The notes under the pieces: model-generated
Told to the model about the DNA's origin: nothing
Database searches by the model: none
Seen by the model: the letters and a program-made list of their open reading frames with translations, nothing else
In this document: in pieces, positions 7,753-25,270 of the stretch
Position numbering within the stretch: the stretch's first letter is position 1
Layout: every line of letters starts with the position of its first letter
DNA from: an uncultured Syntrophomonadaceae bacterium
GTDB taxonomy: Bacteria; Bacillota; Dethiobacteria; DTU022
DNA length: 64,000 bases
Assembly (NCBI GenBank): GCA_964492615.1
Contig: CAZBKZ010000002.1
Coordinates: forward strand, 1,323 to 65,322
Direction of reading: 5' to 3'
Translations under genes and position numbers: made by a program

Positions 7753-7782
7753 AAGGTCGGTTTTGTGGGTTCACCTTGAGGA

Positions 7783-7810: not shown

Positions 7811-7863
7811 GCTTCAACCGCTATCATCATGCAACATAGACCGATTCAAAGGGAGAGCTCAGG

Positions 7864-10210: not shown

Positions 10211-10221
10211 AGGAGAACCAA

Positions 10222-10416: not shown

Positions 10417-10448
10417 ACCAGCGGTATGTTTTAGGAGGTTAAAAGAAA

Positions 10449-10748: not shown

Positions 10749-10928
10749 ATGCATGCTAAAAATGAAATCCCACGACGCAGGAAAACCAGGTTATATATGA
10801 AAATGGTTTTATTTATTTAGTTGCCTTTGAAAACCATCAGTCCGGGAGGTATAGTTGTAACCGGTCAGTTTGATTGGTTTAATCATATTAATAAAAATGT
10901 GCTGTAATTATGGATGGAGGTATCGGTC

Positions 10929-11336
10929 ATGAATATTACAAAACGGGTAAATGAATTACTTTTACAAGGTCACTGCTGCAGCCAGATCATCATGAAAATG
11001 GGATTAGACAAAATGCAAAAAGAAAATGAAGATCTGGTAATCGCGATGAAAGGGTTGTCCCAGGGTATGTATGCCGGGACTGTCTGCGGTACTCTTTCTG
11101 CCGCTTCCTGCCTGCTCTTTCTCCTCTCAGTGAGCATGGGGCAAGATATGAGCACGGAACTGACTGGTTGGTTCGAAAAAGAGTTCGGAGTAATCGATTG
11201 TCCCGAATTGCTGGGCGATGACCCTGTTGGAGCAAGCTTGAGCCTCTGTCCGGAAATCATTCAGCGAACCTTTGCCGAAGTCCTCGAAGTAGCAGAACGT
11301 TATAATCTTTCCTGGGTGGAAATAACGAATGGGTGA
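10929..11336 (+). CDS. C_GCAxxG_C_C family putative redox-active protein.
   Basis: Cys pattern GHCCSQ / VCGTLSAASC / DCP / LCP. Start chosen at the ATG with a GGAGG RBS; the upstream ATG lies inside the RBS. Confidence 0.6.
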   Translation: MNITKRVNELLLQGHCCSQIIMKMGLDKMQKENEDLVIAMKGLSQGMYAGTVCGTLSAASCLLFLLSVSMGQDMSTELTGWFEKEFGVIDCPELLGDDPVGASLSLCPEIIQRTFAEVLEVAERYNLSWVEITNG

Positions 11337-11431
11337 TTGATATTTCAATAAATCCGACTATTTCCTGAGTGCAAACATTTTGTTTGGCACTGGGGTTACA
11401 GCTTCATTGATATGAGGAGGTTACTTTAATA

Positions 11432-12703
11432 GTGCTTGAAAAAACATCGCTTGATCGATGGGTTGCAGAAAAGATTGGTCTTCAGGATGAGGATAGCCTG
11501 ACCCCCCGGAAAATCTTGGCTTACCAGGATGTGATGCTTAAGAAACTGTTAGCCTATGTCAGTGTTAAAAGCCCTTTTTACAGGGAGCTCTATCGTAATG
11601 TTGATACTTCAGTTATTTCAGGCCTTGATGATCTATCCAGGTTACCCATGGTAGATGCGGGAGATCTTGTTGAACATAGCAGCCGGATGGTTTGTGTGTC
11701 ACAGAAGGAAATCAGCAGAATCGTTACCCTGGAGACAACAGGAACTACCGGTTCGCCTAAAAGAGTCTATTTTACTAACGAAGATCAGGAATTGACTATA
11801 GATTTTTTTCACCGGGGCATGCTTAACCTGATTGGCCCTTCAGACCACTTGCTGATTTTACTGCCCTGGGAAAGACCGGGAAGTGTAGGTGACCTGTTGC
11901 AAAAAGGTGTCAGGCGTATTGGCGCCGAGGTTACCTGTTACGGATTGGTGGATAGCCCTGAAAGCGTTGTAAACACAATTATTGCAAGAGGAATAACCAG
12001 CCTGGTTGGTGTACCGGTGCAGATTTTGTCCTTGGTTTATGCTCCCGGTGCAGAAAAAGTTAACCTGGCCGCTGTGCTGTTGAGTACCGATTATGTGGCT
12101 GGCAGCTTGGCCGGTAAGATCGGACTCCGGTTTGGTTGCCCGGTTTTTGAACATTATGGGATGACCGAAACCGGGCTTGGCGGTGCGGTTTCCTGCCGGG
12201 CGTTCCAGGGGTATCACCCCCGGGCCGCTGACCTGGTTTTTGAAATAATCGATCCAAATAGCGGGGAGCTTCTTGAAACAGGAGAAACCGGAGAAATCGT
12301 GGTTACTACCCTTACCCGTCAGGGAATGCCTTTCATTCGTTATAGAACCGGCGACAAGGGGCGTTTTCTGGCAAAACCCTGTCCCTGCGGTTCTGTTCTG
12401 CCCAGGCTTGATAAAGTTAAAGGCCGTTATTCTGAAGATGTAACTATGGGGGGGCAAACTGTTAACCTGGCTAATCTTGATGAACTTTTGTTTGCATTGG
12501 ATGGAGTTATAGATTACCAGGCCGAGGTGAAAAACAATAAAGGCAAAGAGTGGATCAAGGTGAATCTTTTGGTAGCCGATAACATTTTTAATATACCCGA
12601 GCACTTATCTTATGATGGCATAGATATCTACATTGATTGTGAAATAATTACCTTAAATGAAGCACCGGTTTACAGGAAAAGAAAATTTGTTAATACTAAT
12701 TAA
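11432..12703 (+). CDS. Phenylacetate-CoA ligase (PaaK) / F390-synthetase-family adenylate-forming enzyme.
   Basis: GTG start with a GAGGAGG RBS. P-loop-like TTGTTGSPKR and a PaaK-like C-terminal domain. Confidence 0.7.
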   Translation: MLEKTSLDRWVAEKIGLQDEDSLTPRKILAYQDVMLKKLLAYVSVKSPFYRELYRNVDTSVISGLDDLSRLPMVDAGDLVEHSSRMVCVSQKEISRIVTLETTGTTGSPKRVYFTNEDQELTIDFFHRGMLNLIGPSDHLLILLPWERPGSVGDLLQKGVRRIGAEVTCYGLVDSPESVVNTIIARGITSLVGVPVQILSLVYAPGAEKVNLAAVLLSTDYVAGSLAGKIGLRFGCPVFEHYGMTETGLGGAVSCRAFQGYHPRAADLVFEIIDPNSGELLETGETGEIVVTTLTRQGMPFIRYRTGDKGRFLAKPCPCGSVLPRLDKVKGRYSEDVTMGGQTVNLANLDELLFALDGVIDYQAEVKNNKGKEWIKVNLLVADNIFNIPEHLSYDGIDIYIDCEIITLNEAPVYRKRKFVNTN

Positions 12704-12741: not shown

Positions 12742-12770
12742 TTGACATAATGATGGCATTGTGTTATATT
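12742..12770 (+). promoter_or_regulatory. Candidate sigma-A promoter upstream of fdhA: TTGACA-N17-TATATT with an extended -10 TGT.
   Basis: Near-consensus hexamers in an AT-rich intergenic region, about 240 nt upstream of fdhA. Confidence 0.4.
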
Positions 12771-13009: not shown

Positions 13010-16000
13010 TTGAAACGAAGGGATTTTCTTAAACTTACCGGAGTAACTGGCGCAGGCTTGCTCCTTACCGACCTTGGGTTTAACGCAGCGCCGGTTGAAG
13101 CCGCATCTCAAACGATCAGAATTCACAATTCAGAAGAATTTTATTCTGTTTGTACTTTTTGTTCTTGCGGCTGCGGGATGATTTGTAGCGTTAAAGATGG
13201 GAAAATGATTAACCTTGAAGGTGACCCTGATCATATCGTCAGTGAGGGGGCCCTCTGCAGTAAGGGGGCAGCTATGGCGGTAATGCCCAACTCTGATCAA
13301 CGGATCAGGAACCCTCTCTACAGGGCGCCGCGCAGCAACAAGTGGGAAGAAATCAGCTGGGAAGAAGCTATCGACAAGGTTGCCAGGAAATTTGTTGAAA
13401 CCAGGGACGATTACTGGATCAGCGATGAGACTATTGACGGTACCACTTATAAGGTTAACCGCTGCGACGCAGTTAGCTTCATGGGCGGAGCTCAAAACAA
13501 TACAGAGGAATCATATCTCCTTTCTAAGATGTCGAGAATTCTGGGCGCCGTGTATGTAGAGCACCAGGCCAGGGTCTGACACAGTCCCACGGTCGCCAGT
13601 TTAGGCGCCTCATTAGGACGTGGAGCTATGACCAATCACTGGGTTGATTTAAAAAATGCCAAGGTCTTCCTGATCCAGGGTAGCAATGCTGCCGAGAATC
13701 ACCCCATGGCAGTAAAATGGATGCTGGAAGCAAAGAAAAAAGGGGCAATCATTATTCATGTCGACCCCCGTTACACCAGGACCTCATCCATTGCCGATAT
13801 TCATGCCCAGATTCGTCCGGGTGCGGATATCGCATTTCTAAATTCAATTATTAACTACATTATTACCAATAACCTTTATGATGAAGACTTTGTTATTAAC
13901 CATACCAATGCGCTATTGATTGCCAACGAAGAATTCGATTACCAGGACGGCCTTTTTTCGGGCTATAATGACGGTAAATTCAGTTACACCAACCTTTCCT
14001 GGGGTTATACCCTTGATGAAGAAAGCAAGCCTATTAAGGCGGAAAGTCTCGATGATCCTCGCTCTGTCTTCAGCAAAGCCAAGGAATTCTTCAAGCGCTA
14101 TGATTTTAAGGTGGCTTCCGATATCTGCGGGGTTCCCGAGGAAAAGATCAAGCTAATTGCCGATACCCTGGTTAACAATAAGCCTGGAACAATCTGCTAC
14201 GCCCTGGGGATGACCCAGCATACTACCGGCGTTCAGGGGATTCGTTCTTTCGGTATTCTCCAAATGCTCTTAGGGAACCTGGGCAAGCCGGGCAGCGGTG
14301 TTAACGCCATGCGTGGTGAGCCCAATGTGCAGGGAGCAACCGATATGGCCATGTTGTTCCATATCATTCCCGGGTACCTGGCTGTTCCCAACCACGATGT
14401 CGTGGATCTTGATACTTGGACTTCGCGGACCGGTACTTTTCGCCGGACTTTTATGACCAGTATTCTCAAAGCGTGGTTTGGTGACCACGCCCAACCGGAA
14501 AATGATTTTTGTTTTAATTGGTTACCGAAAAAGAACGGGCGTGAAAACTACTCACTCTTCAGGATCTTTGAGACAGCCCTTGATAAAAAGATGAAGTTTC
14601 TCTATATCATGGGTCAGAACCCCATGGTTACCAACCCTAACCTGAACCTGGTGCACGAATCACTGGGCAACCTGGATATGCTGGTTTCTGTTGACCTCTT
14701 TATGACCGAAACCGCCGCTTTCTGGGAAAAACCGGGTGTGGATCCGAGTACGCTTGATACGGAGGTAATTTTCCTCCCTGCGGCCTCTTTCCTCGAAAAA
14801 GAAGGAACCCTGGTTAATTCAGGGCGGATGGTTCAGTGGCGCTATACCGGGATTAAACCGGTCGGCAATTCAAAAACCGACCTGGAGATCATTGATTTGC
14901 TTTTTAACCGCATCCGCGAGCTTTACCAGGGTTCAAGCGACAGCAAGGATGAGCCCATTTTAAAGGCCAACTGGAACTACGAAGCAGAAGATTCTCCCTC
15001 TTTCTCAGAGGAAGTATTGAAGGAAATCAACGGTTACAATCTGGCCACCGGTGAACTCTTAAAAGGGATTGGCGAACTTAAGCCTGACGGAACCACTGCC
15101 GCGGGGAACTGGCTGTATGCCGGAATCTTCGCCAACAACCAGAACCATTCCAAGCGCAAGGATAACATTAACGATCCCGGCGGCCTTGGCATCTATCCCG
15201 GCTTTGCCTGGACCTGGCCCGGAAACTGTCACGTCTTATATAATCGTGCGTCTTGTGATGCTGAAGGTAAGCCTTATGATGAAGCCAATAAGTGTATCTG
15301 GTGGGATGAGGAAAAGGGTATGTGGACCGGGTATGACACTCCCGACGTGCCGAACAGGAACGACGGACCCGATACACCCAACGGCAAAAGACCCTTCCGG
15401 ATGGCCGGGGAAGGTCTCGCCCGTATTCTTGCCGGGCCCTACCAGGATCCCTTTGCCAATCAGCTTCTGCCCAGGGATTCATCAAGCGTCCCTGCCGACG
15501 GCCCGCTTCCGGAGCACTATGAACCCTTTGAGAGCCCTACAGAAAACGTTTTGCATCCCAACGTCCCAGTCAACCCCTGTGTTAAGTATCCCCGAATTCC
15601 GGATAAGCAGCCAATCGGTACGGCAGCGGATTACCCCTACGTTCTCTGTACATCAAGCATGGCAGAGCACTGGTGTGCCGGGACTCAAACCCGTAACATG
15701 CCCTGGTTAAACGAACTGCAGCCAGAAACATTTATTGAAATACCGAAAAACCTGGCTGCCGAAAAGGGCATCAAGAATGGTGACTGGGTAAAAGTCTGGT
15801 CTGCCCGGGGCGAAGTTGAGGCCAAGGCCCAGGTAACCCACCGTATCCATCCCCTTAAAATTAACGGCAAGGAGGTTGATGTGGTCTGGATGCCGTATAA
15901 CTGGGGATACAAGGGCCTTAGTCAGGCTGCCAGCACAAACTATGTGACTATTGATGCAGGCGATCCGAATACCTGGATCCAGGAAACAAAGTGTTGTCTG

Positions 16001-16021
16001 GTAAACCTGGATAAGGCTTAA
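13010..16021 (+). CDS. fdhA: Formate dehydrogenase catalytic (alpha) subunit. It is a selenoprotein (in-frame UGA = Sec at 13577-13579) with a Tat signal.
   Basis: Twin-arginine signal MKRRDFLKLTGV. Fe-S motif CTFCSCGCGM. Track ORFs 13010..13579 and 13628..16021 are in the same frame and are joined by HQARV-U-HSPTVASLG, the classic Sec motif. The molybdopterin domains follow. Confidence 0.9.
13591..13609 (+). ncRNA. Bacterial SECIS upper stem-loop for fdhA (cis-acting mRNA element).
   Basis: Hairpin GGUCGCC-AGUUUA-GGCGCC with a bulged U. It begins exactly 11 nt 3' of the UGA, the spacing seen in E. coli fdhF. A GU is present in the apical loop. Confidence 0.55.
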
Positions 16022-16142
16022 TCGATTATTGTAGCGCAAATTAAGAACCACTGGTTCTGGATGCTGAAGAATATAAACCCGTTAGCCTGCCGACAGCAGG
16101 CTCACGTGAAGCACACCTAAAACTACTCAAAGGCGGTTTAAA

Positions 16143-17021
16143 ATGAGCAACCAGGAATGGAGCAGCTTTGATAAATGGCTTAAAGAGCATCCTTATTTAA
16201 ATGAAATAGGAAGCTTCCACAGAGTTTTGTCAAAAGCTATTGAGGGTTTTGATAAAGAGCAATTCAGTAAAGATTTGCCGGTATCTGACTTAGAAGAAAT
16301 AAAGCAGGGATACAGTAAGGGTGTACCCTTGCTCAGCTCTTTAACGGAGATCAATATGGTTACTGGAATAGCAGGCAGCCTGTTTAAAAAAATAGTTAAT
16401 GCTCTGCTTGAGGCCGATTTACCTTCTAAAACGCTAGAACAGGTTAAAGCCCTTAGAGGTTATATTGAAAAGGTTCCTGATCTTCCAAGAAGGTTAATAA
16501 GGCTGGTTATTAAGGGCAGTAGTGATTCGAAACCTGAAGAGCTTGAATCTGTTTTTAACGATGTAAACGAAGGGTTTGTTAATTTTCTGGCCTGGTCCTC
16601 CTTATCTGCAATCCTTGAGCCTTTGAGAGAAGTAACTGGTGAGTTGCTGGAAGAGAAACCCTGGAGGAAGGGTTACTGTCCTTTGTGTGGGCATTTGCCG
16701 GCGATGGGCCAGCTAATAAGAACAAAAAGAGGGCGGGAACGGGAATTGATCTGCGGATGCTGCAAAATGAAATGGACCTATCGGCGCATTGGCTGTCCCT
16801 ACTGCGGAAACGAAAATGTCAATACGCTGAAACTGATTGAATTTGTTGAAATGCCCGAAATGCGCCTGGATACATGTGAAGAGTGCAAGGCTTATGTAAA
16901 GACATACATAAATCAGGGTAATGAACAGGTTGCCCTCGCAGATTGGTCTACCTTACACCTTGATCTTATCGGAAAAAATAAAGGATTTCAGAGGGTTGAT
17001 GAGTTTTTCTATGAACTTTAA
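16143..17021 (+). CDS. fdhE: Formate dehydrogenase accessory protein FdhE.
   Basis: Four CxxC pairs (CPLCGH, CGCC, CPYCGN, CEEC), typical of FdhE. Confidence 0.85.
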   Translation: MSNQEWSSFDKWLKEHPYLNEIGSFHRVLSKAIEGFDKEQFSKDLPVSDLEEIKQGYSKGVPLLSSLTEINMVTGIAGSLFKKIVNALLEADLPSKTLEQVKALRGYIEKVPDLPRRLIRLVIKGSSDSKPEELESVFNDVNEGFVNFLAWSSLSAILEPLREVTGELLEEKPWRKGYCPLCGHLPAMGQLIRTKRGRERELICGCCKMKWTYRRIGCPYCGNENVNTLKLIEFVEMPEMRLDTCEECKAYVKTYINQGNEQVALADWSTLHLDLIGKNKGFQRVDEFFYEL

Positions 17022-18210
17022 TCAAAATATATATTTGGATAATGCTGCTACTGGCTTTCCTAGGCCTGCAATCGTAACCGATTCAGTTAGTTGCTGGATG
17101 CTCGAAGAAGGCGGTTCTCCCGGTCGCGGTCATCATTTTCTGTCTCGCCGGGCCGGTGATCAGGTGTCAAAGATTCGCCGGCAGGTAGCCCGTTTTTTTG
17201 GGGTTAATGAAGAGTTCAGGGTTGCTTTTACCTTTGGTGCAACTGATGCATTGAACATGGCGATTAAAGGAATCCTGCGAAAGGACGATCACGTTATTAT
17301 CTCTGGAATGGAGCATAATTCTGTACTACGGCCTCTGCGCCATCTGGAAGCTGAAGGTTTAATCAGTATTGATGTTATATCCTGTAATGAAGAAGGCTAT
17401 CTGGTTGAAAATTTAATTTGGGAAGCCTTTCATGAAAAAACAAAATTAATAGTTATTAACCACGCTTCAAATGTAACAGGCAGTATACAGGCTGTTGCTG
17501 AGATAGGGGCGGAAATCCGTCGTCGGGGAGCATATTTGCTGCTTGATGCAGCCCAGTCAACTGGAAATATTCCGATCAAAATTGGTGAACTGAATGCTGA
17601 TATGATAGTTTTTGCCGGGCACAAGGGGCTTTTTGCCCTCCCTGGGGTAGGCGGTATGATTATTGGTGAGCGGATCAATCAACTAAATACATGGCGACAG
17701 GGAGGAACCGGCTATAATTCAAAATCGGAGACTCAGCCACTTAATTGGCCGGAAGCATTTGAAGCCGGAACAATGAATATGCCAGGTATAATATCACTTG
17801 GTAAAGGGATAGAATATATTGAGGAACAAGGCCTGGAAGCAATTGCAAGCCAGAAGATGGCTCATCTAAAATACCTGTGGGATACCTTATCGGAAATTGA
17901 AGGAATAAAGTTATACGGACCTAATCCGGAAAAGCCCAGGGTAGCGGTTCTCTCATTAAATATAACAGACTGGGAACCTGACGATGTTGCAGAAATATTG
18001 CAGCATAACTATAAGGTTCAGGTTCGTTCCGGGCTGCACTGTGCGCCGCTGGCCCATAATACCCTGGGTACAATGCCCAATGGTTCAGTCAGAATCAGTC
18101 CCGGGTATTTTACTAAGCAGGAAGACCTGGATACGGTTGTGCAGGCGATTAAGAATATGGCTTTAAGCAGAGTCGGCTGGAATCTTTTCAATGAAGCCCC
18201 GGCTAATTAA
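17011..18210 (+). CDS. Class-V aminotransferase: a group-II cysteine desulfurase or selenocysteine lyase (SufS/CsdA-like).
   Basis: PLP-binding Lys in FAGHKGL. Active-site RSGLHCAPLAH. Overlaps the fdhE 3' end. Alternative ATG at 16999. Confidence 0.8.
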   Translation: MNFNQNIYLDNAATGFPRPAIVTDSVSCWMLEEGGSPGRGHHFLSRRAGDQVSKIRRQVARFFGVNEEFRVAFTFGATDALNMAIKGILRKDDHVIISGMEHNSVLRPLRHLEAEGLISIDVISCNEEGYLVENLIWEAFHEKTKLIVINHASNVTGSIQAVAEIGAEIRRRGAYLLLDAAQSTGNIPIKIGELNADMIVFAGHKGLFALPGVGGMIIGERINQLNTWRQGGTGYNSKSETQPLNWPEAFEAGTMNMPGIISLGKGIEYIEEQGLEAIASQKMAHLKYLWDTLSEIEGIKLYGPNPEKPRVAVLSLNITDWEPDDVAEILQHNYKVQVRSGLHCAPLAHNTLGTMPNGSVRISPGYFTKQEDLDTVVQAIKNMALSRVGWNLFNEAPAN

Positions 18211-18345
18211 TTTGGGGTTTTGAACCGGGGAACAGGGCTTTGCGGAGATATTGTATCTTGTCAGGTGGTGATTTTACAGATCTGCTAGTCTTAGTATTGC
18301 CATATGCTGGTATAAACCAAGTAAAGTAAATGGTGGTGATAATTA

Positions 18346-19713
18346 GTGACATTAACATTTGATAGAGGGGTATTTCTGCCCCATTATAAGGAATCAACTG
18401 AAAATGAGCCTATAGAATCAATTTCTATGCCGGAAGAGATTGTAATGCCAATGAGTCAGCATGTCGGGGCACCATGTAACCCTACCGTCAGCGTTGGCGA
18501 TCAAGTGAATATTGGGCAGAAAATCGGAGAAAGCCTTACCATGATTAGCGCGCCAATTCATTCAAGTGTGGATGGTGTTGTAACATCTATCGAACTGCGA
18601 CCATATTTTACCGGAAGTAAGGTTAACAGTGTTGTTATCAAGCCTGATGAAAATCAAAGTGATTTTAATAAAAAGGAAAATGATATCGGTAAGTTGGATC
18701 GGGAAAAAATTGTAGAGATGATCAAAGAAGCGGGAATTGTAGGTATGGGAGGAGCTGCCTTCCCTACCCATGTTAAGCTGAACCCGCCAAAAGAGATTGA
18801 CCGGGTTATTATTAACGCCTGTGAATGTGAACCTTACTTAACATGCGATCATAGGATGCTTGTCGAGATGACTGAAAAGTGTGTAGAAGGAGCTAAAATA
18901 ATTGCAAAAGTTGTCGGGGCTCGTCAGATAATATTTGGCATTGAAACCAACAAGCCTGATGCGGCAGAAAAAATTAGCAGCACTATTTTTAAGGATGATG
19001 ATATTTCCGTTGCTATGCTCGATGTTAAGTACCCGCAGGGCGCCGAGAAACAGTTAATAAAAGCAACGGTTAATCGTGAAGTTCCACCCGGGAAGCTACC
19101 TTTTGAGGTAGGGGTTGTTGTTCACAATGTAGCTACCTGTATTGCCATCTATGAAGCAGTCCGGTATGAAAAGCCTCTTTATGAGAGAGTTTTAACTGTT
19201 ACTGGCGACGGAATTGCCAAATCTGCAAATGTTAAAGCCCTGATTGGCACACCAATTGGACATATTATCCATGAGTGTGGAGGGTTTAAAGGTATTGTCA
19301 GTGGTGAAGTGAAAATTGATACCAGCGATGTCCGTTATCCTGTATATGCTCCGCCGGAAGCCAAGGCCAAGGTTATTATGGGTGGACCCATGACCGGTTT
19401 TGCCCAGCAGAGCCTTGATGTCCCTATAGTGAAAGGGACGGGAGGCATCCTGATCTTCACTCCGGAGATGATTAATGCCAGTGAATACCTGGCCTGTGTT
19501 CGCTGTTCCAACTGTGTTCAGCACTGCCCGATGGGGCTTTATCCAAACTATATAGGGACATATGCCGAAACAGGACGCTACAACCATTCAATCGATTGGG
19601 GAGCTTTAGATTGCTTTGAGTGTGGTGTCTGTGTGTATGTTTGCCCATCGAACAGGCCCATCGTCAGGTTTGTCAGGGAAGTGAAACAGTTTGCGGCGCG
19701 AAAAGCGGATTAA
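18346..19713 (+). CDS. RnfC-like Fe-S flavoprotein (RnfC_N barrel, NuoF-like nucleotide/FMN fold, 2x[4Fe-4S]).
   Basis: PMSQHVGAPCNPTVSVGDQV (RnfC N-terminus). GMGGAAFPTHVKL. CVRCSNCVQHCP and CFECGVCVYVCP. GTG start. Confidence 0.75.
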   Translation: MTLTFDRGVFLPHYKESTENEPIESISMPEEIVMPMSQHVGAPCNPTVSVGDQVNIGQKIGESLTMISAPIHSSVDGVVTSIELRPYFTGSKVNSVVIKPDENQSDFNKKENDIGKLDREKIVEMIKEAGIVGMGGAAFPTHVKLNPPKEIDRVIINACECEPYLTCDHRMLVEMTEKCVEGAKIIAKVVGARQIIFGIETNKPDAAEKISSTIFKDDDISVAMLDVKYPQGAEKQLIKATVNREVPPGKLPFEVGVVVHNVATCIAIYEAVRYEKPLYERVLTVTGDGIAKSANVKALIGTPIGHIIHECGGFKGIVSGEVKIDTSDVRYPVYAPPEAKAKVIMGGPMTGFAQQSLDVPIVKGTGGILIFTPEMINASEYLACVRCSNCVQHCPMGLYPNYIGTYAETGRYNHSIDWGALDCFECGVCVYVCPSNRPIVRFVREVKQFAARKAD

Positions 19714-19772
19714 TACTTGAGAACTTTTAAGCGCAGCTAAGATAAAAGAATACAAAGGAGGGATTTTCTAAG

Positions 19773-20768
19773 GTGAATAATCAGCTCAGGTTAACGGTAA
19801 CACCATCTCCGCACCTGCATTCAAAAGAATCAGTATCGAATGCAATGCGCGATGTATTTATTGCATTAATTCCGATCACTCTTGTATCTGTCTATATATA
19901 CAAGTCATATGCTCTCCTGTTGATCGGTGTTTGCCTGGCCATGGCGGCATTGACGGAATTGCTTTTCCGTAAAATCAGGAGACAACGAGCTACGCTAAAC
20001 GACGGAAGCGCCATGGTTACCGGTCTGTTGGTCGCGCTATGTTTTTCACCTGGTACAGCCTGGTGGACGGCAGCACTCGCAGTGTTCATCGGTATTGGCC
20101 TGGCCAAGGAGTTGATGGGTGGCTTGGGATGGAATCGTTATAACCCTGCATTATTCGGACGCCTTTCAGTTATTCTGCTGATACCGATATTCCACCAGGT
20201 TACATATGTTTTTTCTCCTCTTAAGCAGGATTTCGGCAGTGTTGATGTTTTAACACAAGCTACTCCATTGGCCCTGATGATCCAGGGTTCAGGTTATCCT
20301 AGCTTGCTCCAGATGTTTTTAGCCCACCAGGGCGGTTCGCTCGGTGAGACATCTGCGCTGGCGCTCTTAATCGGTGGCCTCTACTTGCTTTACAAGAAAC
20401 ATATAACCTGGCATACGCCTTTATCGGTTATTGCCGCAGTGGTGGTAATGGCCCTGCTTTTTGGAACAAACTTACTTGGCGCCGGGGCACCGCTTTATCA
20501 CCTATTAGGCGGAGGAGTATTATTGGGGGCTTTCTTCATGGCAACCGACTGGGTAACCAGCCCTATTACTCCTACAGGCAAAATTATTTTTGGGGCATCT
20601 ATTGGGATCCTCTTAATGGTTTTCCGCCTCTTTCTTGCGCCAACTGAAGGGATGGCATTTTCTATTCTAATAATGAACGCATTTGTCCCATTAATTGACC
20701 GTTATACTAAGCGGCTAAAGTTTGGCGAGATTAAAAAATCTGCTACTGAAACTGTTATGGGAACGTAG
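19773..20768 (+). CDS. RnfD/NqrB-family integral membrane protein with a covalent-FMN threonine motif.
   Basis: Polytopic membrane protein. DVLTQATPLA matches the RnfD/NqrB FMN-attachment motif (xTGATPL). AAGGAGGG RBS and a GTG start. Confidence 0.75.
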   Translation: MNNQLRLTVTPSPHLHSKESVSNAMRDVFIALIPITLVSVYIYKSYALLLIGVCLAMAALTELLFRKIRRQRATLNDGSAMVTGLLVALCFSPGTAWWTAALAVFIGIGLAKELMGGLGWNRYNPALFGRLSVILLIPIFHQVTYVFSPLKQDFGSVDVLTQATPLALMIQGSGYPSLLQMFLAHQGGSLGETSALALLIGGLYLLYKKHITWHTPLSVIAAVVVMALLFGTNLLGAGAPLYHLLGGGVLLGAFFMATDWVTSPITPTGKIIFGASIGILLMVFRLFLAPTEGMAFSILIMNAFVPLIDRYTKRLKFGEIKKSATETVMGT

Positions 20769-20780
20769 GGGGGGTAAACC

Positions 20781-21569
20781 ATGACAAAATCAATGTTAAT
20801 AGACATTTCCAAGTGTATGGGTTGTCGCGGCTGCCAGGTAGCCTGCAAGCAGTGGAACCAACTGCCAGCTGAAAATACCCGTAATACAGGGACTTATGAA
20901 AACCCACCTCGTTTTTCTGCTCATACATGGACTAAAATTGGTTTCCAGGAATATACAACTGAAGAAGGAATGGACACCTGGATTTTTACCAAACTGGGAT
21001 GTATGCATTGCAGTGATGCAGCTTGCATAAAAGCCTGCCCGGCAGGTGCAATAAGTCATACTGAATTTGGCACGGTTAGAATTGATGAAAAGAGGTGTAT
21101 CGGGTGTAACTACTGCATAGCCAACTGTACATTTAATGTAGTTGGATTTGATCAGGCAGCAAATCTGGCTAAAAAATGCACCTTTTGTTATGATCGAATC
21201 TCTGCCGGTGAAATACCGGCCTGTGCCAAGACTTGTCCAACCGGGGCAATCATGTACGGTGATCGTAGTGATATGATCAGTTTAGCACAGGAGCGTTTAG
21301 CTGAACTGAAAAGAGGTGCTTTCCCCCGGGCTGAAATTTATGGGCTTAAAGAACTGGACGGTTTGGGCATGATGTACATTTTGCCTGAAGGTAAAAGTAG
21401 TGCAATGGCAAAATATGCTCTTCCGGAGAACCCGAGAGTGCCGCTTTCAACTGAAGTTTGGAATTACATCTTCAAACCTGTTCGGATCATCCTGGTTGCT
21501 GCACTTGGTTTTGCTTTATGGATTAACCGGAGTGAATCGAAAAAGGAACAAACAGAAAAGAGCGCTTAG
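20781..21569 (+). CDS. fdhB: Formate dehydrogenase iron-sulfur (beta) subunit with four [4Fe-4S] clusters and a C-terminal membrane anchor.
   Basis: Four ferredoxin-like Cys clusters. The C-terminal hydrophobic helix is IILVAALGFALWI. GGGGGGG RBS. Confidence 0.85.
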   Translation: MTKSMLIDISKCMGCRGCQVACKQWNQLPAENTRNTGTYENPPRFSAHTWTKIGFQEYTTEEGMDTWIFTKLGCMHCSDAACIKACPAGAISHTEFGTVRIDEKRCIGCNYCIANCTFNVVGFDQAANLAKKCTFCYDRISAGEIPACAKTCPTGAIMYGDRSDMISLAQERLAELKRGAFPRAEIYGLKELDGLGMMYILPEGKSSAMAKYALPENPRVPLSTEVWNYIFKPVRIILVAALGFALWINRSESKKEQTEKSA

Positions 21570-21719
21570 AAAACCTTAGTGTGGGCAATAGCCCCGGGGT
21601 TTTGTTCAATAATATGTTATGCAACTAATATTTTCTGTTTATGAAGAAATATTAGTTGATCGGTTGCTGCACCGTTCAACTTTTATTTGATTAACTGCAT
21701 CAGTTAATCCATCTCAATT

Positions 21720-21746
21720 GGCGGGGTGATAACCCCGCCCCTTTTT
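21720..21746 (+). terminator. Rho-independent terminator ending the fdh operon.
   Basis: GGCGGGG-TGATAA-CCCCGCC followed by CTTTTT. Confidence 0.75.
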
Positions 21747-21779: not shown

Positions 21780-23018
21780 TTGATACCTTATGAAAAAGCT
21801 AAAGAATTATTAATGAACAGCAGAGTAATTGAAAATCATAGAAATGCAGTAGAATCGCTACATCTTTGGGAAGCAGGAGGAAGGATCCTTGCCGAGGACA
21901 TAATCGCGGGTGAAGATGTTCCTCCCTTCGACCGTTCGCCGGTTGACGGTTATGCTGTTATTGCTTCTGATACGGTTGCCGCTGCTGAAGAAGATCCTGT
22001 TATTCTTGAAGTAACTGGCTCAATTGCAGCAGGCACAACTTCCGAATACAGACTCAGCCCAGGGACGGCAATAAAAATATTTACCGGTGCGCCTTTGCCA
22101 GAGTATGCAAACTGTATAGTTAAGACAGAAGATGTTTTTGAAAGTTTTTTTGTTGATGAAAAGGAGTTTATCAAGCTAACGCACCCTGTTGCCAGTGGAG
22201 AGGTAATTGCTTTTAAAGGGGAGGATATTCAATGCGGAGAGACCATGCTTTTAAAAGGGTCAATAATTAATCCTGCCTGTATAGGAATACTGGCGACTTT
22301 AGGTGTAAGCACGGTTCCTGTTTTTAAAAAACCTTTGATAGGAATCTTTTCTACGGGAGATGAGCTTGTCAACGTAGAAAACCAGTTAAAACATGGTCAA
22401 TTAAGAGCATCAAATATATATACTCTTTCAGAAATTATAAGGTTATCAGGTTGCGAACCAGTCAACCTGGGCGTAATTAAAGATTCAATTGATGATATAT
22501 TAAGTGTATATTGCACTGCGCTAAAACTCGATCTGCCTGTAATAATTTCAACAGGAGGGACAGCTTCGGGTGATAAGGATTTGATCAAAGAAGCAATGAT
22601 TAAACTAGGCTCATCCCGATTATTTAATAAAGTAGCCATCAGGCCTGGAGCTCCGGTTGTTGCCTCTGAAATGGAAGAGCGATTATTGATAGGGCTTTCT
22701 GGAAATCCCTCAGGTTCGACTGTGGGAGCATTGACCCTGTTGATGCCGTTTATTTCTAAGATGGCTGGTAGGATTAAAGAATTGGATCGAGTCAGGGCAA
22801 TATTAAAAGGCTCAATATTTAGGCATGGTGGTTTACGGGCATTTCTTTGGGGTAACTGTTGTTACGACAAGGATATCTATCAGGTGGAAGCTAATAATAA
22901 CCAGTTCTGTGGAGCTGTAAGAAGCTTTGCTTCCAGTAATTGCCTGATAGATGTGCCGGCCGGAAAGGTTAACCTTTCTACTGGCGATTCGGTTGAAATA
23001 TTAAGGTTTTCTGTGTAG
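21780..23018 (+). CDS. moeA: Molybdopterin molybdenumtransferase MoeA (paralog 1).
   Basis: PPFDRSPVDGYAV motif and MoeA domain order. TTG start with a GAGGGA RBS. Confidence 0.85.
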   Translation: MIPYEKAKELLMNSRVIENHRNAVESLHLWEAGGRILAEDIIAGEDVPPFDRSPVDGYAVIASDTVAAAEEDPVILEVTGSIAAGTTSEYRLSPGTAIKIFTGAPLPEYANCIVKTEDVFESFFVDEKEFIKLTHPVASGEVIAFKGEDIQCGETMLLKGSIINPACIGILATLGVSTVPVFKKPLIGIFSTGDELVNVENQLKHGQLRASNIYTLSEIIRLSGCEPVNLGVIKDSIDDILSVYCTALKLDLPVIISTGGTASGDKDLIKEAMIKLGSSRLFNKVAIRPGAPVVASEMEERLLIGLSGNPSGSTVGALTLLMPFISKMAGRIKELDRVRAILKGSIFRHGGLRAFLWGNCCYDKDIYQVEANNNQFCGAVRSFASSNCLIDVPAGKVNLSTGDSVEILRFSV

Positions 23019-23129
23019 AGCTTAATTCAATTTGAAATAACTCAAACAGTAATTTTTCTAATCAAAACCCTGAAGAAATAATGCTAATCCTCAGAGAACA
23101 AAGGGTTAGCATTAGTAGCAGTATTTGCG

Positions 23130-23507
23130 TTACTTAATCGGTATATCATTAAAATGCTTCTCGTATAGTTGGTCTACGGCATTAATAGATTCTTCCTTAA
23201 AAGCTATGTATGCTCTCACCAGTTTTCTTGCGGTATCTGTTAGCTCTGAACCACTTTGCGATCCTCCGATATGTTTATCAATTAATTTAAATCCCAAGGT
23301 TTTTTCAGTAGCAGTTATTTTCCCCCATGCTGCCCGGTAAGACATGCCAAGTTTTGCAGCAGCCTTATTAATCGATCCGCATTCTTCGATTGCCTGAAAT
23401 AAGGCCAGTCGTCCTCCTCCGAAAATAACCTGTTTGTTGTATTCAATCCAGATTTTACACCTGGGCTGCAGCGATAGCTTTTTAACTATTTTCTTTTTAT
23501 CTTCCAA
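23130..23507 (-). CDS. Second ModE N-terminal-like winged-HTH regulator with no Mop domains.
   Basis: GSINKAAAKLGMSYRAAWGKITATEKTLGFKLI is homologous to the HTH in 3773..4129. Confidence 0.7.
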   Translation of the reverse strand: MEDKKKIVKKLSLQPRCKIWIEYNKQVIFGGGRLALFQAIEECGSINKAAAKLGMSYRAAWGKITATEKTLGFKLIDKHIGGSQSGSELTDTARKLVRAYIAFKEESINAVDQLYEKHFNDIPIK

Positions 23508-23662
23508 ACCAATCCACCTCCGGTATAGTAATTCTCTAATAATAGTTTATATCCTTCTCCGTCATATCTACTGTTTTAGATAAGTTTAGGGCTTGGTAAT
23601 TACTTAATAATATGGAATAATTAAAATCATGTTAATAAGCGTTAATTAAGGAGGGTACACTA

Positions 23663-23824
23663 TTGAGAACACCTGTACTGACGAGGAAAGGTTTACGACA
23701 AAAGAAAAGAATAGTAAAAACTAATAGTTCTGGCAGTAATGCAGGTTCTTGCCGGGGGGTTAAATACCCTTGTACTTATCGTTGCAAGAAATGTATATTT
23801 GATACAATGTATTGTGGTAAGTGA
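23663..23824 (+). CDS. Unannotated 53-aa cysteine-rich mini-protein (five Cys in the C-terminal 25 aa).
   Basis: Consensus RBS AAGGAGGG, then 7 nt, then TTG. Sequence MRTPVLTRKGLRQKKRIVKTNSSGSNAGSCRGVKYPCTYRCKKCIFDTMYCGK. It is below the ORF-track size cutoff. Confidence 0.4.
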   Translation: MRTPVLTRKGLRQKKRIVKTNSSGSNAGSCRGVKYPCTYRCKKCIFDTMYCGK

Positions 23825-23857
23825 GGAGGGAAAATTTTTAAGGTCATTATGTCTATC

Positions 23858-23886
23858 TTGACATAATGTAAATTTTTCATTATAAT
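23858..23886 (+). promoter_or_regulatory. Perfect consensus sigma-A promoter TTGACA-N17-TATAAT upstream of moeA paralog 2.
   Basis: Exact consensus hexamers with a 17-nt spacer, about 80 nt upstream of the moeA2 start. Confidence 0.6.
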
Positions 23887-23968
23887 TTATTGACCCTTTA
23901 ATTATTTTACTATAATTAAGAAAATTAACAATATAATATTATATTCATGATTAATAATACAATAATAA

Positions 23969-25270
23969 ATGCCGGAGGTGTTATCACTGGAAGAGAATAT
24001 TTTGAATCCGCAAGTTACCTCTGAAAACCTGGTATCTACAGTTTTCCCGGAAAAAGTTGAATCACCCATAAGTCTTGAGTTTGCCCAGGAACTGCTTATA
24101 CAGCATACAAAAGCTATAGGTTTTGAAAGTATCAGTATTAGTTCAGCCTTAAACCGGGTTCTTCATGAAGACATTATCGCACCTTTAAATATTCCACCGT
24201 TTAACCGATCTCCACTGGATGGTTTTGTCCTTCGGGCAGCGGACATCGCAAAGGCTTCGCCTGCCAACCCGGTCTACATTGAGGTTAACCAGAACATTCC
24301 GGCCGGCAGCCCCAGTCAGAAGGAGGTTGGGGAAAACCAGGCAGCCAGGATCATGACGGGAGCCCCGATACCTTCCGGAGCAGATGTGATAATAAAGATT
24401 GAAGATGTTAATTATTCAGGTAATCATGTGGAGGTTACAAAGGCATTATCGCCATTTGAAAATGTTTGTTTTGCCGGAGAGGATATTGAGCAGGGCGAAG
24501 CAGTTCTTTGCGGGGGAGAGTATATTTGTCCGGCAGGAATTGGAATCCTTGCAGCGTTGGGCATTGACGTTGTAGATGTAAATAGCATACCCCGGGTGGC
24601 GATTATCGGTACCGGTGATGAGTTGATTTCTGTTCAAGATGAATTAAGGCCGGGTAAAATTTATGACAGTAATACGTTTTCCCTTGCTTCATATGTTCAA
24701 CAAATAGGTGCTTGCCCGGTGTTTGCCGGTACTGTTACAGATGATACAGAATTAATAGCTGTTAAAATACTGGAAAACCTTAAACAAGCGGATATGGTTA
24801 TAACTACCGGTGGGGTTTCAGTCGGTGATAGTGATCTGGTTTGTAATGCTCTCCGCTCAATTGGCGCTAGTATATTGTTTCATCGTATTGATATGCGTCC
24901 CGGAACTCCTGCCTTGGGAGCTGAGAAAGATGGCAAGTTGATAATTTGCCTTTCCGGAAATAAGGCGGCAGCCTTTGTTACTTTTCAGCTATTGGCACGT
25001 CCGGCCATAGCATCTCTGATGGGGATAAAAGCTTGCTGCCCTCCTGTGGTAACAGCTGTGTTGGGCGAGCATTATCGTAAAACAAGTGGGCAGCGTAATC
25101 TGTTACGGGGACAGTTGTCCTTTGATGATTGTATGTTGAAGGTTAATATTGCCGGGAAACAAAATCCTGGGATAATCAGATCAACCTTGAACTGCAATGC
25201 TTTAATTGATGTCCCTGCAAATTTCGGACCTTTGAATGCTGGTACGCGGGTTAGTATATTTTTATTGTAG
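23969..25270 (+). CDS. moeA: Molybdopterin molybdenumtransferase MoeA (paralog 2).
   Basis: PPFNRSPLDGFVLRAADI motif. MoeA domain order. Confidence 0.85.
   Translation: MPEVLSLEENILNPQVTSENLVSTVFPEKVESPISLEFAQELLIQHTKAIGFESISISSALNRVLHEDIIAPLNIPPFNRSPLDGFVLRAADIAKASPANPVYIEVNQNIPAGSPSQKEVGENQAARIMTGAPIPSGADVIIKIEDVNYSGNHVEVTKALSPFENVCFAGEDIEQGEAVLCGGEYICPAGIGILAALGIDVVDVNSIPRVAIIGTGDELISVQDELRPGKIYDSNTFSLASYVQQIGACPVFAGTVTDDTELIAVKILENLKQADMVITTGGVSVGDSDLVCNALRSIGASILFHRIDMRPGTPALGAEKDGKLIICLSGNKAAAFVTFQLLARPAIASLMGIKACCPPVVTAVLGEHYRKTSGQRNLLRGQLSFDDCMLKVNIAGKQNPGIIRSTLNCNALIDVPANFGPLNAGTRVSIFLL

Follow-up and report, generated by a model that had tools for sequence, protein, structure and literature searches.

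We find that a secreted, selenium-containing formate dehydrogenase (FDH) is encoded together with only two of the six components of the Rnf ion pump, RnfC and RnfD, in place of the usual cytochrome b membrane anchor, and that the same pairing recurs in dozens of other anaerobic Bacillota genomes. This suggests that the encoded system probably passes electrons across the membrane between extracytoplasmic formate/CO2 and cytoplasmic NAD(H), although it has not been characterized to date. The arrangement itself is not entirely unknown: RnfC/D next to an FDH were noted in passing in unFirm_1 (Frank et al. 2016, PMC5080403), and a 2025 preprint (10.1101/2025.07.15.664484) names an "FdhAH-RnfCD complex". 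In contrast, we found no description of the related versions coupled to hydrogenases and Psr-like enzymes that are reported below.

The gene cluster and its encoded proteins

The analyzed window is a 64-kb stretch of DNA from an uncultured Syntrophomonadaceae bacterium, in which positions 13010-21746 hold a single promoter-to-terminator unit comprising fdhA, fdhE, a cysteine desulfurase gene, rnfC, rnfD and fdhB. The observation made in the preliminary description is confirmed, with all six open reading frames (ORFs) lying where it had placed them. The features of the region are as follows:

12742..12770 (+), promoter-like site upstream of fdhA (TTGACA-17-TATATT, with an extended -10 TG)
13010..16021 (+), fdhA, Tat-exported, selenocysteine-containing catalytic subunit of the FDH-N type, with the UGA (Sec) codon at 13577-13579
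16143..17021 (+), fdhE-like FDH maturation protein, CxxC-rich
16999..18210 (+), class-V aminotransferase, a cysteine desulfurase or SclA-like selenocysteine lyase (the ORF is open from 16921)
18346..19713 (+), rnfC, cytoplasmic FMN/NAD(H)-binding subunit with two [4Fe-4S] clusters
19773..20768 (+), rnfD, polytopic membrane flavoprotein
20781..21569 (+), fdhB, FdnH-type subunit with four [4Fe-4S] clusters and a C-terminal transmembrane (TM) helix
21720..21746 (+), intrinsic-terminator-like hairpin that ends the operon
21780..23018 (+), moeA, molybdopterin molybdotransferase, an adjacent accessory gene lying after the terminator

The promoter-like site shows 11 of 12 consensus matches, although this is a consensus match only and not proof of function, and the strong terminator-like hairpin has an 8-bp stem with 7 G-C pairs followed by a T-run. 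The MoeA protein contains the MoeA_N, MoCF_biosynth and MoeA_C domains, and a second moeA lies at 23969-25270.

The FdhA protein contains the Molybdop_Fe4S4, Molybdopterin and Molydop_binding domains and an N-terminal KRRDFLK Tat motif, and its in-frame TGA lies in the classic HQARV-U-HSPTVASLG context, with the part after the UGA scoring 853 bits against the FDH-N alpha profile TIGR01553. A hairpin lies 3' of the UGA, but its stability is not significant on its own. The fdhE-like product gave only weak hits to FdhE_central/FdhE_C and TIGR01562, but the same family sits next to fdhA in 29 related loci. The class-V aminotransferase scores 423 bits against TIGR01977, above the cutoff of that profile; it is absent from the closest type-(a) relatives, such as the related locus L014, and represents an insertion specific to the lineage of the window rather than a part of the conserved core. 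The FdhB protein has 16 cysteines arranged as four 4Fe-4S motifs and scores 221 bits against E. coli FdnH (1kqf_B). It has no signal peptide of its own and is presumably exported with FdhA, and its C-terminal signature, namely W-x-x-I-F-K-P-V-R followed by the TM helix and ALWINRSES, is shared with the FeS partners of other RnfCD loci.

The RnfC protein contains the RnfC_N and Complex1_51K domains, the latter covering profile positions 1-150 of 150, and two CxxCxxCxxxCP motifs. It scores 490 bits against TIGR01945 and 381 bits against C. tetanomorphum RnfC (7zc6_C), while its residues about 315-339 form an insert not seen in the solved RnfCs. The RnfD protein scores 332 bits against PF03116, 280 bits against TIGR01946, and 229 and 228 bits against the RnfD chains of 7zc6 and 9eri, respectively. 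The motifs GMGGAAFPTHVKL and DVLTQATPL singled out in the preliminary description are both present. T164 of RnfD aligns with the FMN-bearing T156 of A. woodii RnfD, and N124 and D259 are the riboflavin ligands; the three cofactor residues are conserved in 58 of 58 clade members. Thus, the possibility that RnfD had lost its capacity to attach FMN, which had been named in advance as grounds for rejecting the proposal, is not borne out. The same holds for the two other such conditions, namely additional Rnf subunits close by and a cytochrome b anchor. Pfam scans of essentially every sizeable ORF in the 64 kb recovered no RnfA/B/E/G, ApbE, cytochrome b or NrfD, and no other rnf genes lie in the window or within about 10 kb in 90 related loci, with RnfG seeds giving no tblastn hit in these 90 loci or in the window.

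Conserved linkage and exchange of the catalytic partner

The 79 best RnfD relatives from species-representative genomes (52-70% identity) form one tight clade apart from canonical RnfD. Among 50%-identity representatives the score drops from 386 to 241 bits, the clade is monophyletic in a neighbor-joining tree, and it is marked by the signature residues W120, R122, L288, T291 and R314. About 45 of these relatives sit next to fdhAB, and none has rnfG/E/A/B nearby. The linkage is seen in three different gene orders, namely fdhA-fdhE-rnfC-rnfD-fdhB, rnfC-rnfD-fdhA-fdhB and fdhA-fdhB-rnfC-rnfD, and the association is far beyond chance. In 81 related loci the only conserved neighbors are RnfC, the FeS subunit, FdhA and FdhE. 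Of 21 loci with at least 8 kb on both sides, 17 have an FDH, 1 a hydrogenase, 1 a Psr-like enzyme, 1 the FeS subunit only, and 1 none of these.

The same rnfC-rnfD-FeS trio is also coupled to Tat-exported [NiFe] hydrogenases (5 loci) and to Psr/Phs-like molybdoenzymes (6 loci), and some genomes carry several RnfCD paralogs, each beside a different Tat-exported enzyme. The trio is contiguous in many loci, while the catalytic subunit is exchangeable. Pairwise-distance correlations show that the FeS subunit co-varies with RnfD (0.85) at least as strongly as RnfC does (0.78), whereas FdhA correlates with the others at only 0.45-0.56, though this statistic is confounded by shared phylogeny. Some genomes have the rnfC-rnfD-fdhB trio with no fdhA within 10 kb (loci L019 and L089), and one locus (L007) has rnfCD alone. 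No RnfD-FeS gene fusion was found. The flavin transferase ApbE, needed to attach FMN to RnfD, is also absent from the flanks of related loci; it was not sought elsewhere in the genome. Proteins of such systems were detected in published metaproteomes: RnfC and the adjacent FDH were both detected for unFirm_1, in an incomplete genome in which only RnfC and RnfD were found (PMC5080403), and an FdhAH-RnfCD with expressed proteins is reported in Natronincolaceae JAAZJW01_1, which also has a complete Rnf.

A proposed quinone-independent electron path across the membrane

The above observations suggest that FdhA, FdhB, RnfD and RnfC form one membrane-bound enzyme, an NAD(H)-linked formate dehydrogenase/CO2 reductase that needs no quinone, a reading to which we assign a probability of roughly 0.7. 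In this view, FdhA (with Sec and Mo/W-bisPGD) and FdhB would be exported together by the Tat system and sit on the outer face of the cytoplasmic membrane, held by the C-terminal helix of FdhB, which would dock on RnfD instead of on a cytochrome b (FdnI). Electrons would pass between the membrane-proximal cluster of FdhB and the FMN covalently bound to RnfD T164 in the outward-facing pocket, and continue to the riboflavin held by N124/D259 in the inward-facing pocket, then to the two [4Fe-4S] clusters of RnfC, to its FMN, and finally to NAD+/NADH. This corresponds to the RnfD-RnfC half of the U-shaped Rnf pathway, with the FdnH-like subunit taking the place of RnfG as the outside partner. Support for such a path comes from the cryo-EM structure of A. 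woodii Rnf (Kumar et al. 2025, PMC11889175), in which RnfD carries a covalent FMN on T156 in the periplasm-facing pocket and a riboflavin held by N123/D249, "routes electrons across the membrane" to RnfC (FMN, NADH and two [4Fe-4S]), and is not involved in Na+ transport. The gene content, cofactor ligands, conserved linkage, distinct clade and co-variation are shown by our analysis, whereas the physical formation of a complex, NAD(H) as the partner, electrogenicity and direction are inferred. No biochemical or structural evidence exists that FdhB contacts RnfD, and no multimer model was computed.

The energetics are likewise inferred. As only half of the U is used, each electron would cross the membrane and the reaction would be electrogenic. 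The CO2/formate (about -430 mV) and NAD+/NADH (-320 mV) couples differ by only about 0.1 V, and the enzyme should therefore run near equilibrium. Formate oxidation would add to the membrane potential when formate is high or the outside is alkaline, but with NAD+ as acceptor the driving force is too small to push two charges against a full membrane potential at neutral pH, making this direction energetically tight. Conversely, NADH-driven CO2 reduction to external formate would be pulled by the membrane potential, a form of reverse electron transport as needed by syntrophs, and the system may well run towards formate production.

The interpretation offered in the preliminary description, namely that Tat-exported FdhAB uses RnfD plus a cytoplasmic RnfC in place of a cytochrome b or NrfD anchor, is supported by these results. 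However, its designation of the module as formate-oxidizing is not established, since thermodynamics make NADH-driven, membrane-potential-assisted formate production at least as likely; ferredoxin, which it had offered as an alternative acceptor, is an unlikely partner because RnfB is absent; and the architecture, which it did not recognize as a described complex, had been briefly noted in the two reports cited above.

Of the alternatives, the one that survives best, though unlikely, is that the same complex also pumps ions, with electron transfer between the two RnfD flavins driving Na+ or H+ through RnfD itself as in the NqrB/RnfD channel model, so that it would be a Na+-translocating formate:NAD+ oxidoreductase rather than a passive electron wire. 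A 2025 review of Rnf/Nqr (PMC12174285) describes an unresolved debate, with Vitt 2022 and Hau 2023 placing the ion path, the F338/F342 gate and a Na+ site in NqrB/RnfD. The RnfD of the window has L251 and F255 at the gate positions, like canonical RnfDs, many carriers are soda-lake haloalkaliphiles, and about 15 loci have an Mrp Na+/H+ antiporter a few kb away. Against this, Kumar et al. 2025 found no Na+ and a dry interior in RnfD and assign pumping to RnfA/E, which are absent here, as are RnfB and RnfG, the conformational drivers proposed for the RnfD model. Furthermore, the formate-NAD+ redox span is already insufficient for the electrogenic electron transfer alone and leaves nothing for extra pumping in the forward direction.

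It is still less likely that FdhAB and RnfCD are functionally independent, with FdhAB tethered only by the FdhB helix and donating electrons to an extracellular or periplasmic carrier (cytochromes, direct interspecies transfer, or menaquinone directly), and RnfCD serving an unknown cytoplasm-to-outside redox task. The trio-only and rnfCD-only loci and the lack of direct contact evidence would allow this, but the FeS subunit co-varies with RnfD more tightly than with its own catalytic subunit, the trio persists while the catalytic subunit is exchanged, and no cytochrome or other carrier gene is conserved nearby. Finally, the possibility that rnfC and rnfD are a split-off part of a normal six-subunit Rnf, co-regulated with an FdhAB that hands electrons to some other acceptor, is the least likely: although the window covers only 64 kb of the genome, some carriers have a complete rnf operon elsewhere (Natronincolaceae JAAZJW01_1, and "Ca. 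Contubernalis", whose paper reports a full Rnf alongside a Tat-exported FDH, the RnfCD linkage not having been examined there), and "Ca. Syntrophonatronum" encodes RnfC, RnfD and two RnfG, genomes with a full rnfCDGEAB already have their own RnfC/D, so that the FDH-linked pair is an extra paralog; the linked RnfDs form a separate tight clade; the linkage survives three gene-order rearrangements and partner swaps; only RnfC and RnfD were found in the incomplete unFirm_1 genome; and FdhAB would otherwise have no membrane partner at all.

Relationship to previously described systems

E. coli formate dehydrogenase-N (FdnGHI; PDB: 1KQF) shares with the present system a Tat-exported, selenocysteine-containing catalytic subunit of the Mo-bisPGD type, an FdnH-type FeS subunit with four [4Fe-4S] clusters and a C-terminal membrane helix, an FdhE-type maturation gene, and a redox-loop geometry in which formate is oxidized on the outside while the acceptor is reduced on the inside. 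It differs in that the system described here has no FdnI di-heme cytochrome b and no quinone site, its membrane subunit is a flavoprotein, and a cytoplasmic NAD(H)-binding subunit is added; the acceptor potential would be about -320 mV rather than about -75 mV, making the energetics near equilibrium instead of strongly downhill. With respect to the Rnf complex (RnfCDGEAB; PDB: 7ZC6, 9ERI, 8AHX), RnfC and RnfD are bona fide family members that retain all cofactor ligands, and the RnfD-to-RnfC arm of the electron path is presumably identical. However, RnfA and RnfE (the membrane [2Fe-2S] cluster and the Na+ path of Kumar 2025), RnfG, and RnfB (the ferredoxin site) are missing, and electrons would cross the membrane once rather than following a U-turn.

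The FdhAH-RnfCD of Natronincolaceae JAAZJW01_1 and the truncated Rnf of unFirm_1 show the same gene architecture, and the host type, anaerobic-digester Bacillota, appears similar. The preprint also assumes NADH as the donor for formate production. These papers give one or a few sentences each, without sequence analysis of cofactor sites, phylogeny, a survey of distribution, biochemistry, or a link to the hydrogenase or Psr versions. The externally oriented FDH with cytochrome b and menaquinone of syntrophs such as Syntrophomonas wolfei (the reverse quinone loop) has the same proposed physiological role, in which the membrane potential pushes electrons outward to reduce CO2 to formate for interspecies transfer; that system draws electrons from menaquinol through a cytochrome b, whereas here they would come from NADH through flavins. 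In the related loci with hydrogenases or Psr/Phs-like enzymes, a Tat-exported catalytic subunit plus a HybA/PsrB-type four-cluster FeS subunit is attached to a membrane module, as in hydrogenase-2 (HybOABC) and polysulfide/thiosulfate reductase (PsrABC/PhsABC), but the quinone-reactive membrane subunit (HybB, PsrC; NrfD family) is replaced by RnfD plus RnfC.

Organization of the operon and its genomic surroundings

A listing and translation of the open reading frames reproduced exactly the gene map given in the preliminary description, and its observation that a Tat-exported formate dehydrogenase (FDH) is encoded with RnfC- and RnfD-like proteins and without a cytochrome b subunit is confirmed. 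The unit comprises the following features:

12742-12770: near-consensus promoter-like site
13010-16021: fdhA, two in-frame ORFs joined by a TGA at 13577-13579
16143-17021: weak FdhE homologue
16999-18210 (gene call): class-V aminotransferase of the cysteine desulfurase / SclA type
18346-19713: rnfC
19773-20768: rnfD
20781-21569: fdhB
21720-21746: strong hairpin followed by a T-run

The TGA codon of fdhA lies in the context ...EHQARV-U-HSPTVASLGASLGRGAMTNHW, which is the canonical selenocysteine context of FDH-N, and the N-terminus (MKRRDFLKLTG...) is a twin-arginine signal. Profile searches against Pfam and NCBIfam recovered the Molybdop_Fe4S4, Molybdopterin and Molydop_binding domains, and the part after the UGA matched TIGR01553 (FDH-N alpha) with 853 bits (cutoff 814). 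A SECIS-like hairpin is present after the UGA, but as it is no more stable than shuffled sequences (z = -1.3), the assignment of selenocysteine rests on the conserved protein context. FdhB has 16 Cys in four [4Fe-4S] motifs and a hydrophobic C-terminal transmembrane helix, and scores 221 bits to E. coli FdnH (1kqf_B), although its score of 235 bits to TIGR01582 is below the equivalog cutoff of that model (334). The Tat-exported alpha subunit, with Sec and of the Mo-bisPGD type, and the beta subunit of an FDH-N type enzyme are therefore both present, whereas the gamma subunit, a di-haem cytochrome b (FdnI) with a quinone site, is not: no cytochrome b or NrfD-type gene was found in the operon or the window, and none is conserved in related loci. 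A search for hidden small membrane genes between the genes of the operon yielded nothing credible, only a 29-codon ORF at 18240-18329. A scan of the whole window against Rfam, aimed for example at a Moco riboswitch in the 240-nt leader, returned no hits.

Pfam searches with essentially every sizeable ORF of the 64 kb also detected no RnfA/E, RnfB, RnfG/FMN_bind or ApbE. The neighbors instead include a molybdate-type ABC transporter, a Mo-hydroxylase, an HdrA/CCG-like protein, two moeA genes, regulators and housekeeping genes. The region upstream of the operon (838-12703) contains a molybdate/tungstate-type ABC transporter (838-3648, minus strand), a Mo-hydroxylase / aldehyde oxidoreductase with 2Fe-2S domains (5035-7752), an HdrA-like flavoprotein fused to FeS and CCG domains (8120-10210), DUF7479 and a C_GCAxxG_C_C protein, and an AMP-binding (CoA-ligase-like) protein. 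This could be a second redox module, but it is not conserved next to rnfCD elsewhere. Downstream (21780-25270), two moeA paralogs (36% identical) flank a short, divergently oriented LysR-type HTH ORF (23130-23507, 125 aa), which apparently consists of the DNA-binding domain only, and a perfect -35/-10 promoter-like site at 23858-23886 precedes the second moeA. The cysteine desulfurase / selenocysteine-lyase-like gene of the operon (TIGR01977; 322 bits to the SclA model, below its cutoff) is inserted between fdhE and rnfC only in the lineage of the window, and may serve sulfuration of the Mo/W cofactor or selenium recycling for the Sec enzyme. A second, IscS-type desulfurase, with NifU and an Rrf2 regulator, lies at 58045-60051. 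At 36886-40950, a 1354-aa protein has PPDK_N and PEP-utilizer domains only in its last roughly 450 residues, leaving a roughly 900-residue unannotated N-terminal region, and is followed by a divergent GAPDH-like protein (417 aa) and a DUF362 FeS protein.

Cofactor sites of RnfC and RnfD and their association with FDH

RnfD matches PF03116 over profile positions 2-296 of 296 with 332 bits (cutoff 27.7) and TIGR01946 with 280 bits (cutoff 207), and aligns end to end with the solved RnfD proteins of C. tetanomorphum and A. woodii (229 and 228 bits). RnfC matches TIGR01945 with 490 bits (cutoff 246), contains RnfC_N, a complete Nuo51-type FMN/NADH domain (Complex1_51K, positions 1-150 of 150) and two CxxCxxCxxxCP [4Fe-4S] motifs, and scores 381 bits (7zc6_C) and 354 bits to the RnfC proteins of the same two organisms. 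A roughly 24-residue insert (KGIVSGEVKIDTSDVRYPVYAPPEAKAKV; window 19288-19362, RnfC residues about 315-339) lies between the SLBB-like region and the FeS domain. It is absent from the solved RnfCs, and the shorter RnfCs of relatives at 60-67% identity suggest that they lack it too.

The cryo-EM study of the A. woodii complex (PMC11889175) places an FMN covalently bound to T156 of RnfD in a pocket open to the periplasm, a riboflavin held by N123 and D249 in a pocket open to the cytoplasm, and FMN, NADH and two [4Fe-4S] clusters in RnfC. Loss of the capacity for FMN attachment, together with grouping with unrelated transporters, had been named in advance as grounds for rejecting the proposal. 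In the alignment, however, the protein of the window has T164 (in the motif TQATPL, of the [S/T]-x-A-T type), N124 and D259 at these positions, and all three residues are invariant in 29 relatives, in 58 of 58 members of the wider clade and in 17 of 17 canonical sequences. The RnfD-RnfC half of the Rnf electron path therefore appears intact. Flavinylation itself, which needs the ApbE/Ftp flavin transferase, was not assayed; apbE is absent from the window and from the flanks of related loci, and as whole genomes were not searched this observation decides neither for nor against a transferase elsewhere in the genome. The loop preceding the FMN threonine is longer in the window than in the two solved clostridial RnfDs and was considered as a docking feature, but loop length is just as variable among canonical representatives and the idea was abandoned. 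No structure prediction was made, as the sequence matches to solved RnfC, RnfD and FdnH are already full-length, and the FdhB-RnfD interface was not modeled.

An exact-match search showed the same operon in several metagenome assemblies. The best RnfD among species-representative genomes is only 70% identical. A 70%-identical RnfD (P0011) sits in a different arrangement, rnfC-rnfD-fdhA(Sec)-fdhB, between unrelated housekeeping genes. A scan of one genome per species (GTDB) with an RnfD alignment returned 79 loci at 52-70% identity (related loci are numbered below with the prefix L), and tblastn searches with the proteins of the window showed fdhA/fdhB next to rnfC-rnfD in about 45 of them, in three gene orders: (a) fdhA-fdhE-rnfC-rnfD-fdhB, as in the window; (b) rnfC-rnfD-fdhA-fdhB; and (c) fdhA-fdhB-rnfC-rnfD. 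Order (c) includes the cultured Anoxynatronum buryatiense and A. sibiricum, as well as Tindallia, Alkaliphilus and Halobacteroidaceae MAGs. Of the 21 loci with at least 8 kb on both sides, 17 have FDH, 1 has a hydrogenase, 1 has a Psr-like enzyme, 1 has only the FeS subunit and 1 has nothing. The last of these (L007:8627-11793, GCA_900198705.1) is the only full-flank locus with rnfC-rnfD and no FeS or catalytic partner; a roughly 790-bp stretch with no called gene follows its rnfD, and the surroundings include BrxL-like and helicase genes. The same assembly accession also holds a locus from a different lineage (L089), so it may be a multi-organism assembly.

It had also been stated beforehand that further Rnf subunits just outside the operon would overturn the proposal. 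An unbiased all-against-all clustering of every ORF in 81 loci found only RnfC, the FeS subunit, FdhA and FdhE as conserved neighbors, so that no other Rnf subunit is conserved within about 10 kb, and four RnfG (FMN_bind) seeds gave no tblastn hit in 90 loci plus the window. The six-subunit composition of the Rnf complex, with RnfA/E (membrane 2Fe-2S), RnfG (FMN) and RnfB (ferredoxin site), is thus not found here, although the rest of the genome was not covered.

A distinct RnfD clade and its enzyme partners

In a search of 1.84 billion 50%-identity representatives, one full-length representative scores 386 bits (57% identity) and the next full-length one scores 241 bits (43%). The FDH-linked RnfDs are thus one compact family, set apart from all other RnfDs. 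A neighbor-joining tree places every FDH-, hydrogenase- and Psr-linked RnfD in one clade apart from canonical sequences, and the clade is marked by the signature residues W120, R122, L288, T291 and R314. A search for informative gene fusions showed that long RnfD homologs among the 50%-identity representatives are either RnfD-RnfG (FMN_bind) fusions, with up to four FMN_bind repeats (P0156, P0193, P0222, P0230), or canonical-type homologs with N-terminal extensions of 130-315 residues that have no Pfam match (P0135, P0136, P0141, P0191, P0205), and none is fused to an FeS domain.

Two results point to RnfC-RnfD-FeS as the co-evolving unit, with the catalytic subunit being exchangeable. First, across 37 complete operons the FdhA of the window is 65-68% identical to type (a) FdhAs but only 40-44% identical to those of types (b) and (c), while RnfC, RnfD and FdhB stay at 42-71% across all types. 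Second, pairwise-distance matrices correlate at 0.85 for RnfD-FeS, 0.80 for RnfC-FeS and 0.78 for RnfC-RnfD, whereas FdhA correlates with any of them at only 0.45-0.56; this comparison is internal and is not corrected for phylogeny. Consistent with a module, rnfC-rnfD-fdhB is contiguous in the window and stands alone in some genomes, namely L019 and the very abundant P0061 lineage (L089; found in 206 collection blocks). The trio of L089 (8589-11853) occupies the same syntenic site, with a sigma factor and HAD phosphatase upstream and transpeptidase, YceG, RuvX, IreB and AlaS downstream, that holds rnfC-rnfD-fdhA-fdhB in L008 (8628-14912). Where the catalytic subunit of the trio-only genomes is encoded is not known. 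All the FeS partners share the C-terminal motif W-x-x-I-F-K-P-x-R, followed by a TM helix and then ALW-x-N-[KR]-x-ES.

In five loci (L010, L011, L013, L015 and L032; e.g. L013:2542-11007) the trio is followed directly by a [NiFe(Se)] hydrogenase small subunit (TIGR00391, 289 bits), a large subunit (NF033181, 718 bits), the maturation protease, and ORFs with the sizes and order of hyp maturation genes, of which only the 219-aa one was inspected and looks like HypB. The FeS protein and the small subunit carry Tat signals, and the arrangement looks like a hydrogenase wired to RnfCD instead of to HybB or a cytochrome b. MAG288 carries two such clusters (L011 and L013). In six further loci (L037:8645-14841 from a Dethiobacter MAG, and L073, L074, L076, L079 and L082) rnfCD is joined to a TorD-like chaperone, a Tat-signal PhsA/Psr-like molybdoenzyme (NF012032, 387 bits) and its FeS subunit. 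In L079 this cluster lies in tandem with a second fdhE-fdhA-fdhB-rnfC unit, and in L071 a Psr-like cluster lies just upstream of fdhAB-rnfCD. Single MAGs carry several RnfCD paralogs with different partners, for example CAYTER01 (hydrogenase in L032, FDH in L085) and CAZVLE01 (FDH in L054, Psr in L082). The hydrogenase- and Psr-linked RnfDs are nested inside the FDH-linked clade, so partner switching happened repeatedly.

These observations leave room for a broader reading, which we consider about as likely as not (probability roughly 0.5), in which the conserved unit is not FDH plus RnfCD but a three-gene module of RnfC, RnfD and an FdnH-like four-cluster FeS protein with a C-terminal helix. 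In this view, the module would be a general, quinone-independent membrane adaptor in anaerobic Bacillota (Dethiobacteria, Natronincolaceae, 'Syntrophomonadaceae' MAGs and Halobacteroidaceae), wiring interchangeable Tat-exported enzymes directly to the cytoplasmic NAD(H) pool by single-pass electrogenic electron transfer. The enzymes seen so far are two FDH lineages, [NiFe(Se)] hydrogenase and a Psr/Phs-type molybdoenzyme.

Earlier records, inferred mechanism and possible ion coupling

Adjacency of rnfC and rnfD to a Tat-exported fdhA/fdhB without other rnf genes, as seen in the window and in about 45 related loci, is not wholly unprecedented, having been noted in 2016 (Frank et al., PMC5080403) and named in a 2025 preprint (10.1101/2025.07.15.664484). 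Full-text searches, which did not extend to subscription-only literature, found only these two mentions. Other papers did not make the connection. Timmers et al. 2018 (PMC6295475) saw only RnfC, RnfD and RnfG in 'Ca. Syntrophonatronum' and read them as an Rnf pump, the 'Ca. Contubernalis' paper describes a Tat-FDH with a helix-anchored beta subunit and no stated membrane partner, and the 2025 Rnf/Nqr review (PMC12174285) does not mention RnfCD-only systems. No description of the hydrogenase and Psr versions was found, and no paper in the library searched contains both RnfD and HybA. The arrangement is therefore noticed but uncharacterized, while the cofactor-site analysis, the separate clade, the breadth of distribution, the view of the trio as a module, and the hydrogenase and Psr versions appear to be new within the searchable literature. 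The system falls outside the Rnf complex as defined by six subunits and outside FDH-N as defined by FdnI, and is a hybrid of modules from both.

The interpretation offered in the preliminary description, a formate-oxidizing module passing electrons across the membrane to NAD+ or ferredoxin, is supported with the qualifications that it has precedents, that its direction and ion coupling are unknown, and that ferredoxin is an unlikely partner because RnfB is absent. It is established that FdnGH-type enzymes are exported by Tat, with the last cluster of the beta subunit feeding the membrane subunit, and that electrons in Rnf pass from RnfG-FMN to RnfD-FMN, RnfD-riboflavin, the RnfC clusters, RnfC-FMN and finally NAD+ (PMC11889175); what follows for the present system is inference. 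Neither a physical complex nor formate:NAD+ / NADH:CO2 oxidoreductase activity was assayed. We infer that the FdnH-like subunit replaces RnfG as the outside partner of RnfD. The enzyme would then be a formate:NAD+ oxidoreductase whose electrons cross the membrane once, whereas the canonical U-shaped path is electroneutral for the electron. Moving two electrons inward, with H+ released outside and consumed inside, would build membrane potential, and the reverse reaction would consume it. With textbook potentials (CO2/formate about -430 mV, NAD+/NADH -320 mV), about 20 kJ/mol is available, which is less than the roughly 30 kJ needed to move two charges against 150 mV. At neutral pH and normal membrane potential the enzyme should therefore sit near equilibrium or run towards formate, while at high external pH, as in the soda lakes from which many carriers come, or at high formate, oxidation becomes favorable, so that the direction is open.

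If the complex works as inferred, it represents a third way to anchor periplasmic FDH-N-type enzymes, and apparently hydrogenases and Psr-type reductases too, beside the known cytochrome b and NrfD-type quinone-reactive subunits, and one that would connect them to NAD(H) without any quinone. It would give syntrophic acetate and fatty-acid oxidizers, and soda-lake anaerobes, a simple route to exchange formate or H2 with partners while gaining or spending membrane potential, which bears on how these organisms live near the thermodynamic limit. It would also affect how 'incomplete Rnf' annotations in MAGs should be read, as these are currently scored as missing or as a ferredoxin:NAD+ pump (PMC6295475). 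Cultured carriers such as A. buryatiense and A. sibiricum make experiments feasible. The finding is of considerable interest for the bioenergetics of anaerobes and for the debate on the Rnf/Nqr mechanism, tempered by the prior mentions and by the lack of any experimental evidence.

As a natural minimal RnfC-RnfD system without RnfA/E/G/B, it would further make directly testable the disputed question of whether RnfD/NqrB itself translocates ions. The field is split between an RnfD/NqrB path and an RnfA/E path (PMC12174285), and whether RnfD additionally moves ions here was not established. The RnfD of the window has the same residues as canonical RnfDs, L251 and F255, at the proposed gate. A multisubunit Mrp/Mnh Na+/H+ antiporter operon lies 3-10 kb downstream of rnfD in about 15 loci (L043:13840-20958, L061:15178-20945 and about 14 others), mostly from soda-lake lineages and often on the opposite strand, which could reflect lineage synteny or a functional link to Na+ handling.
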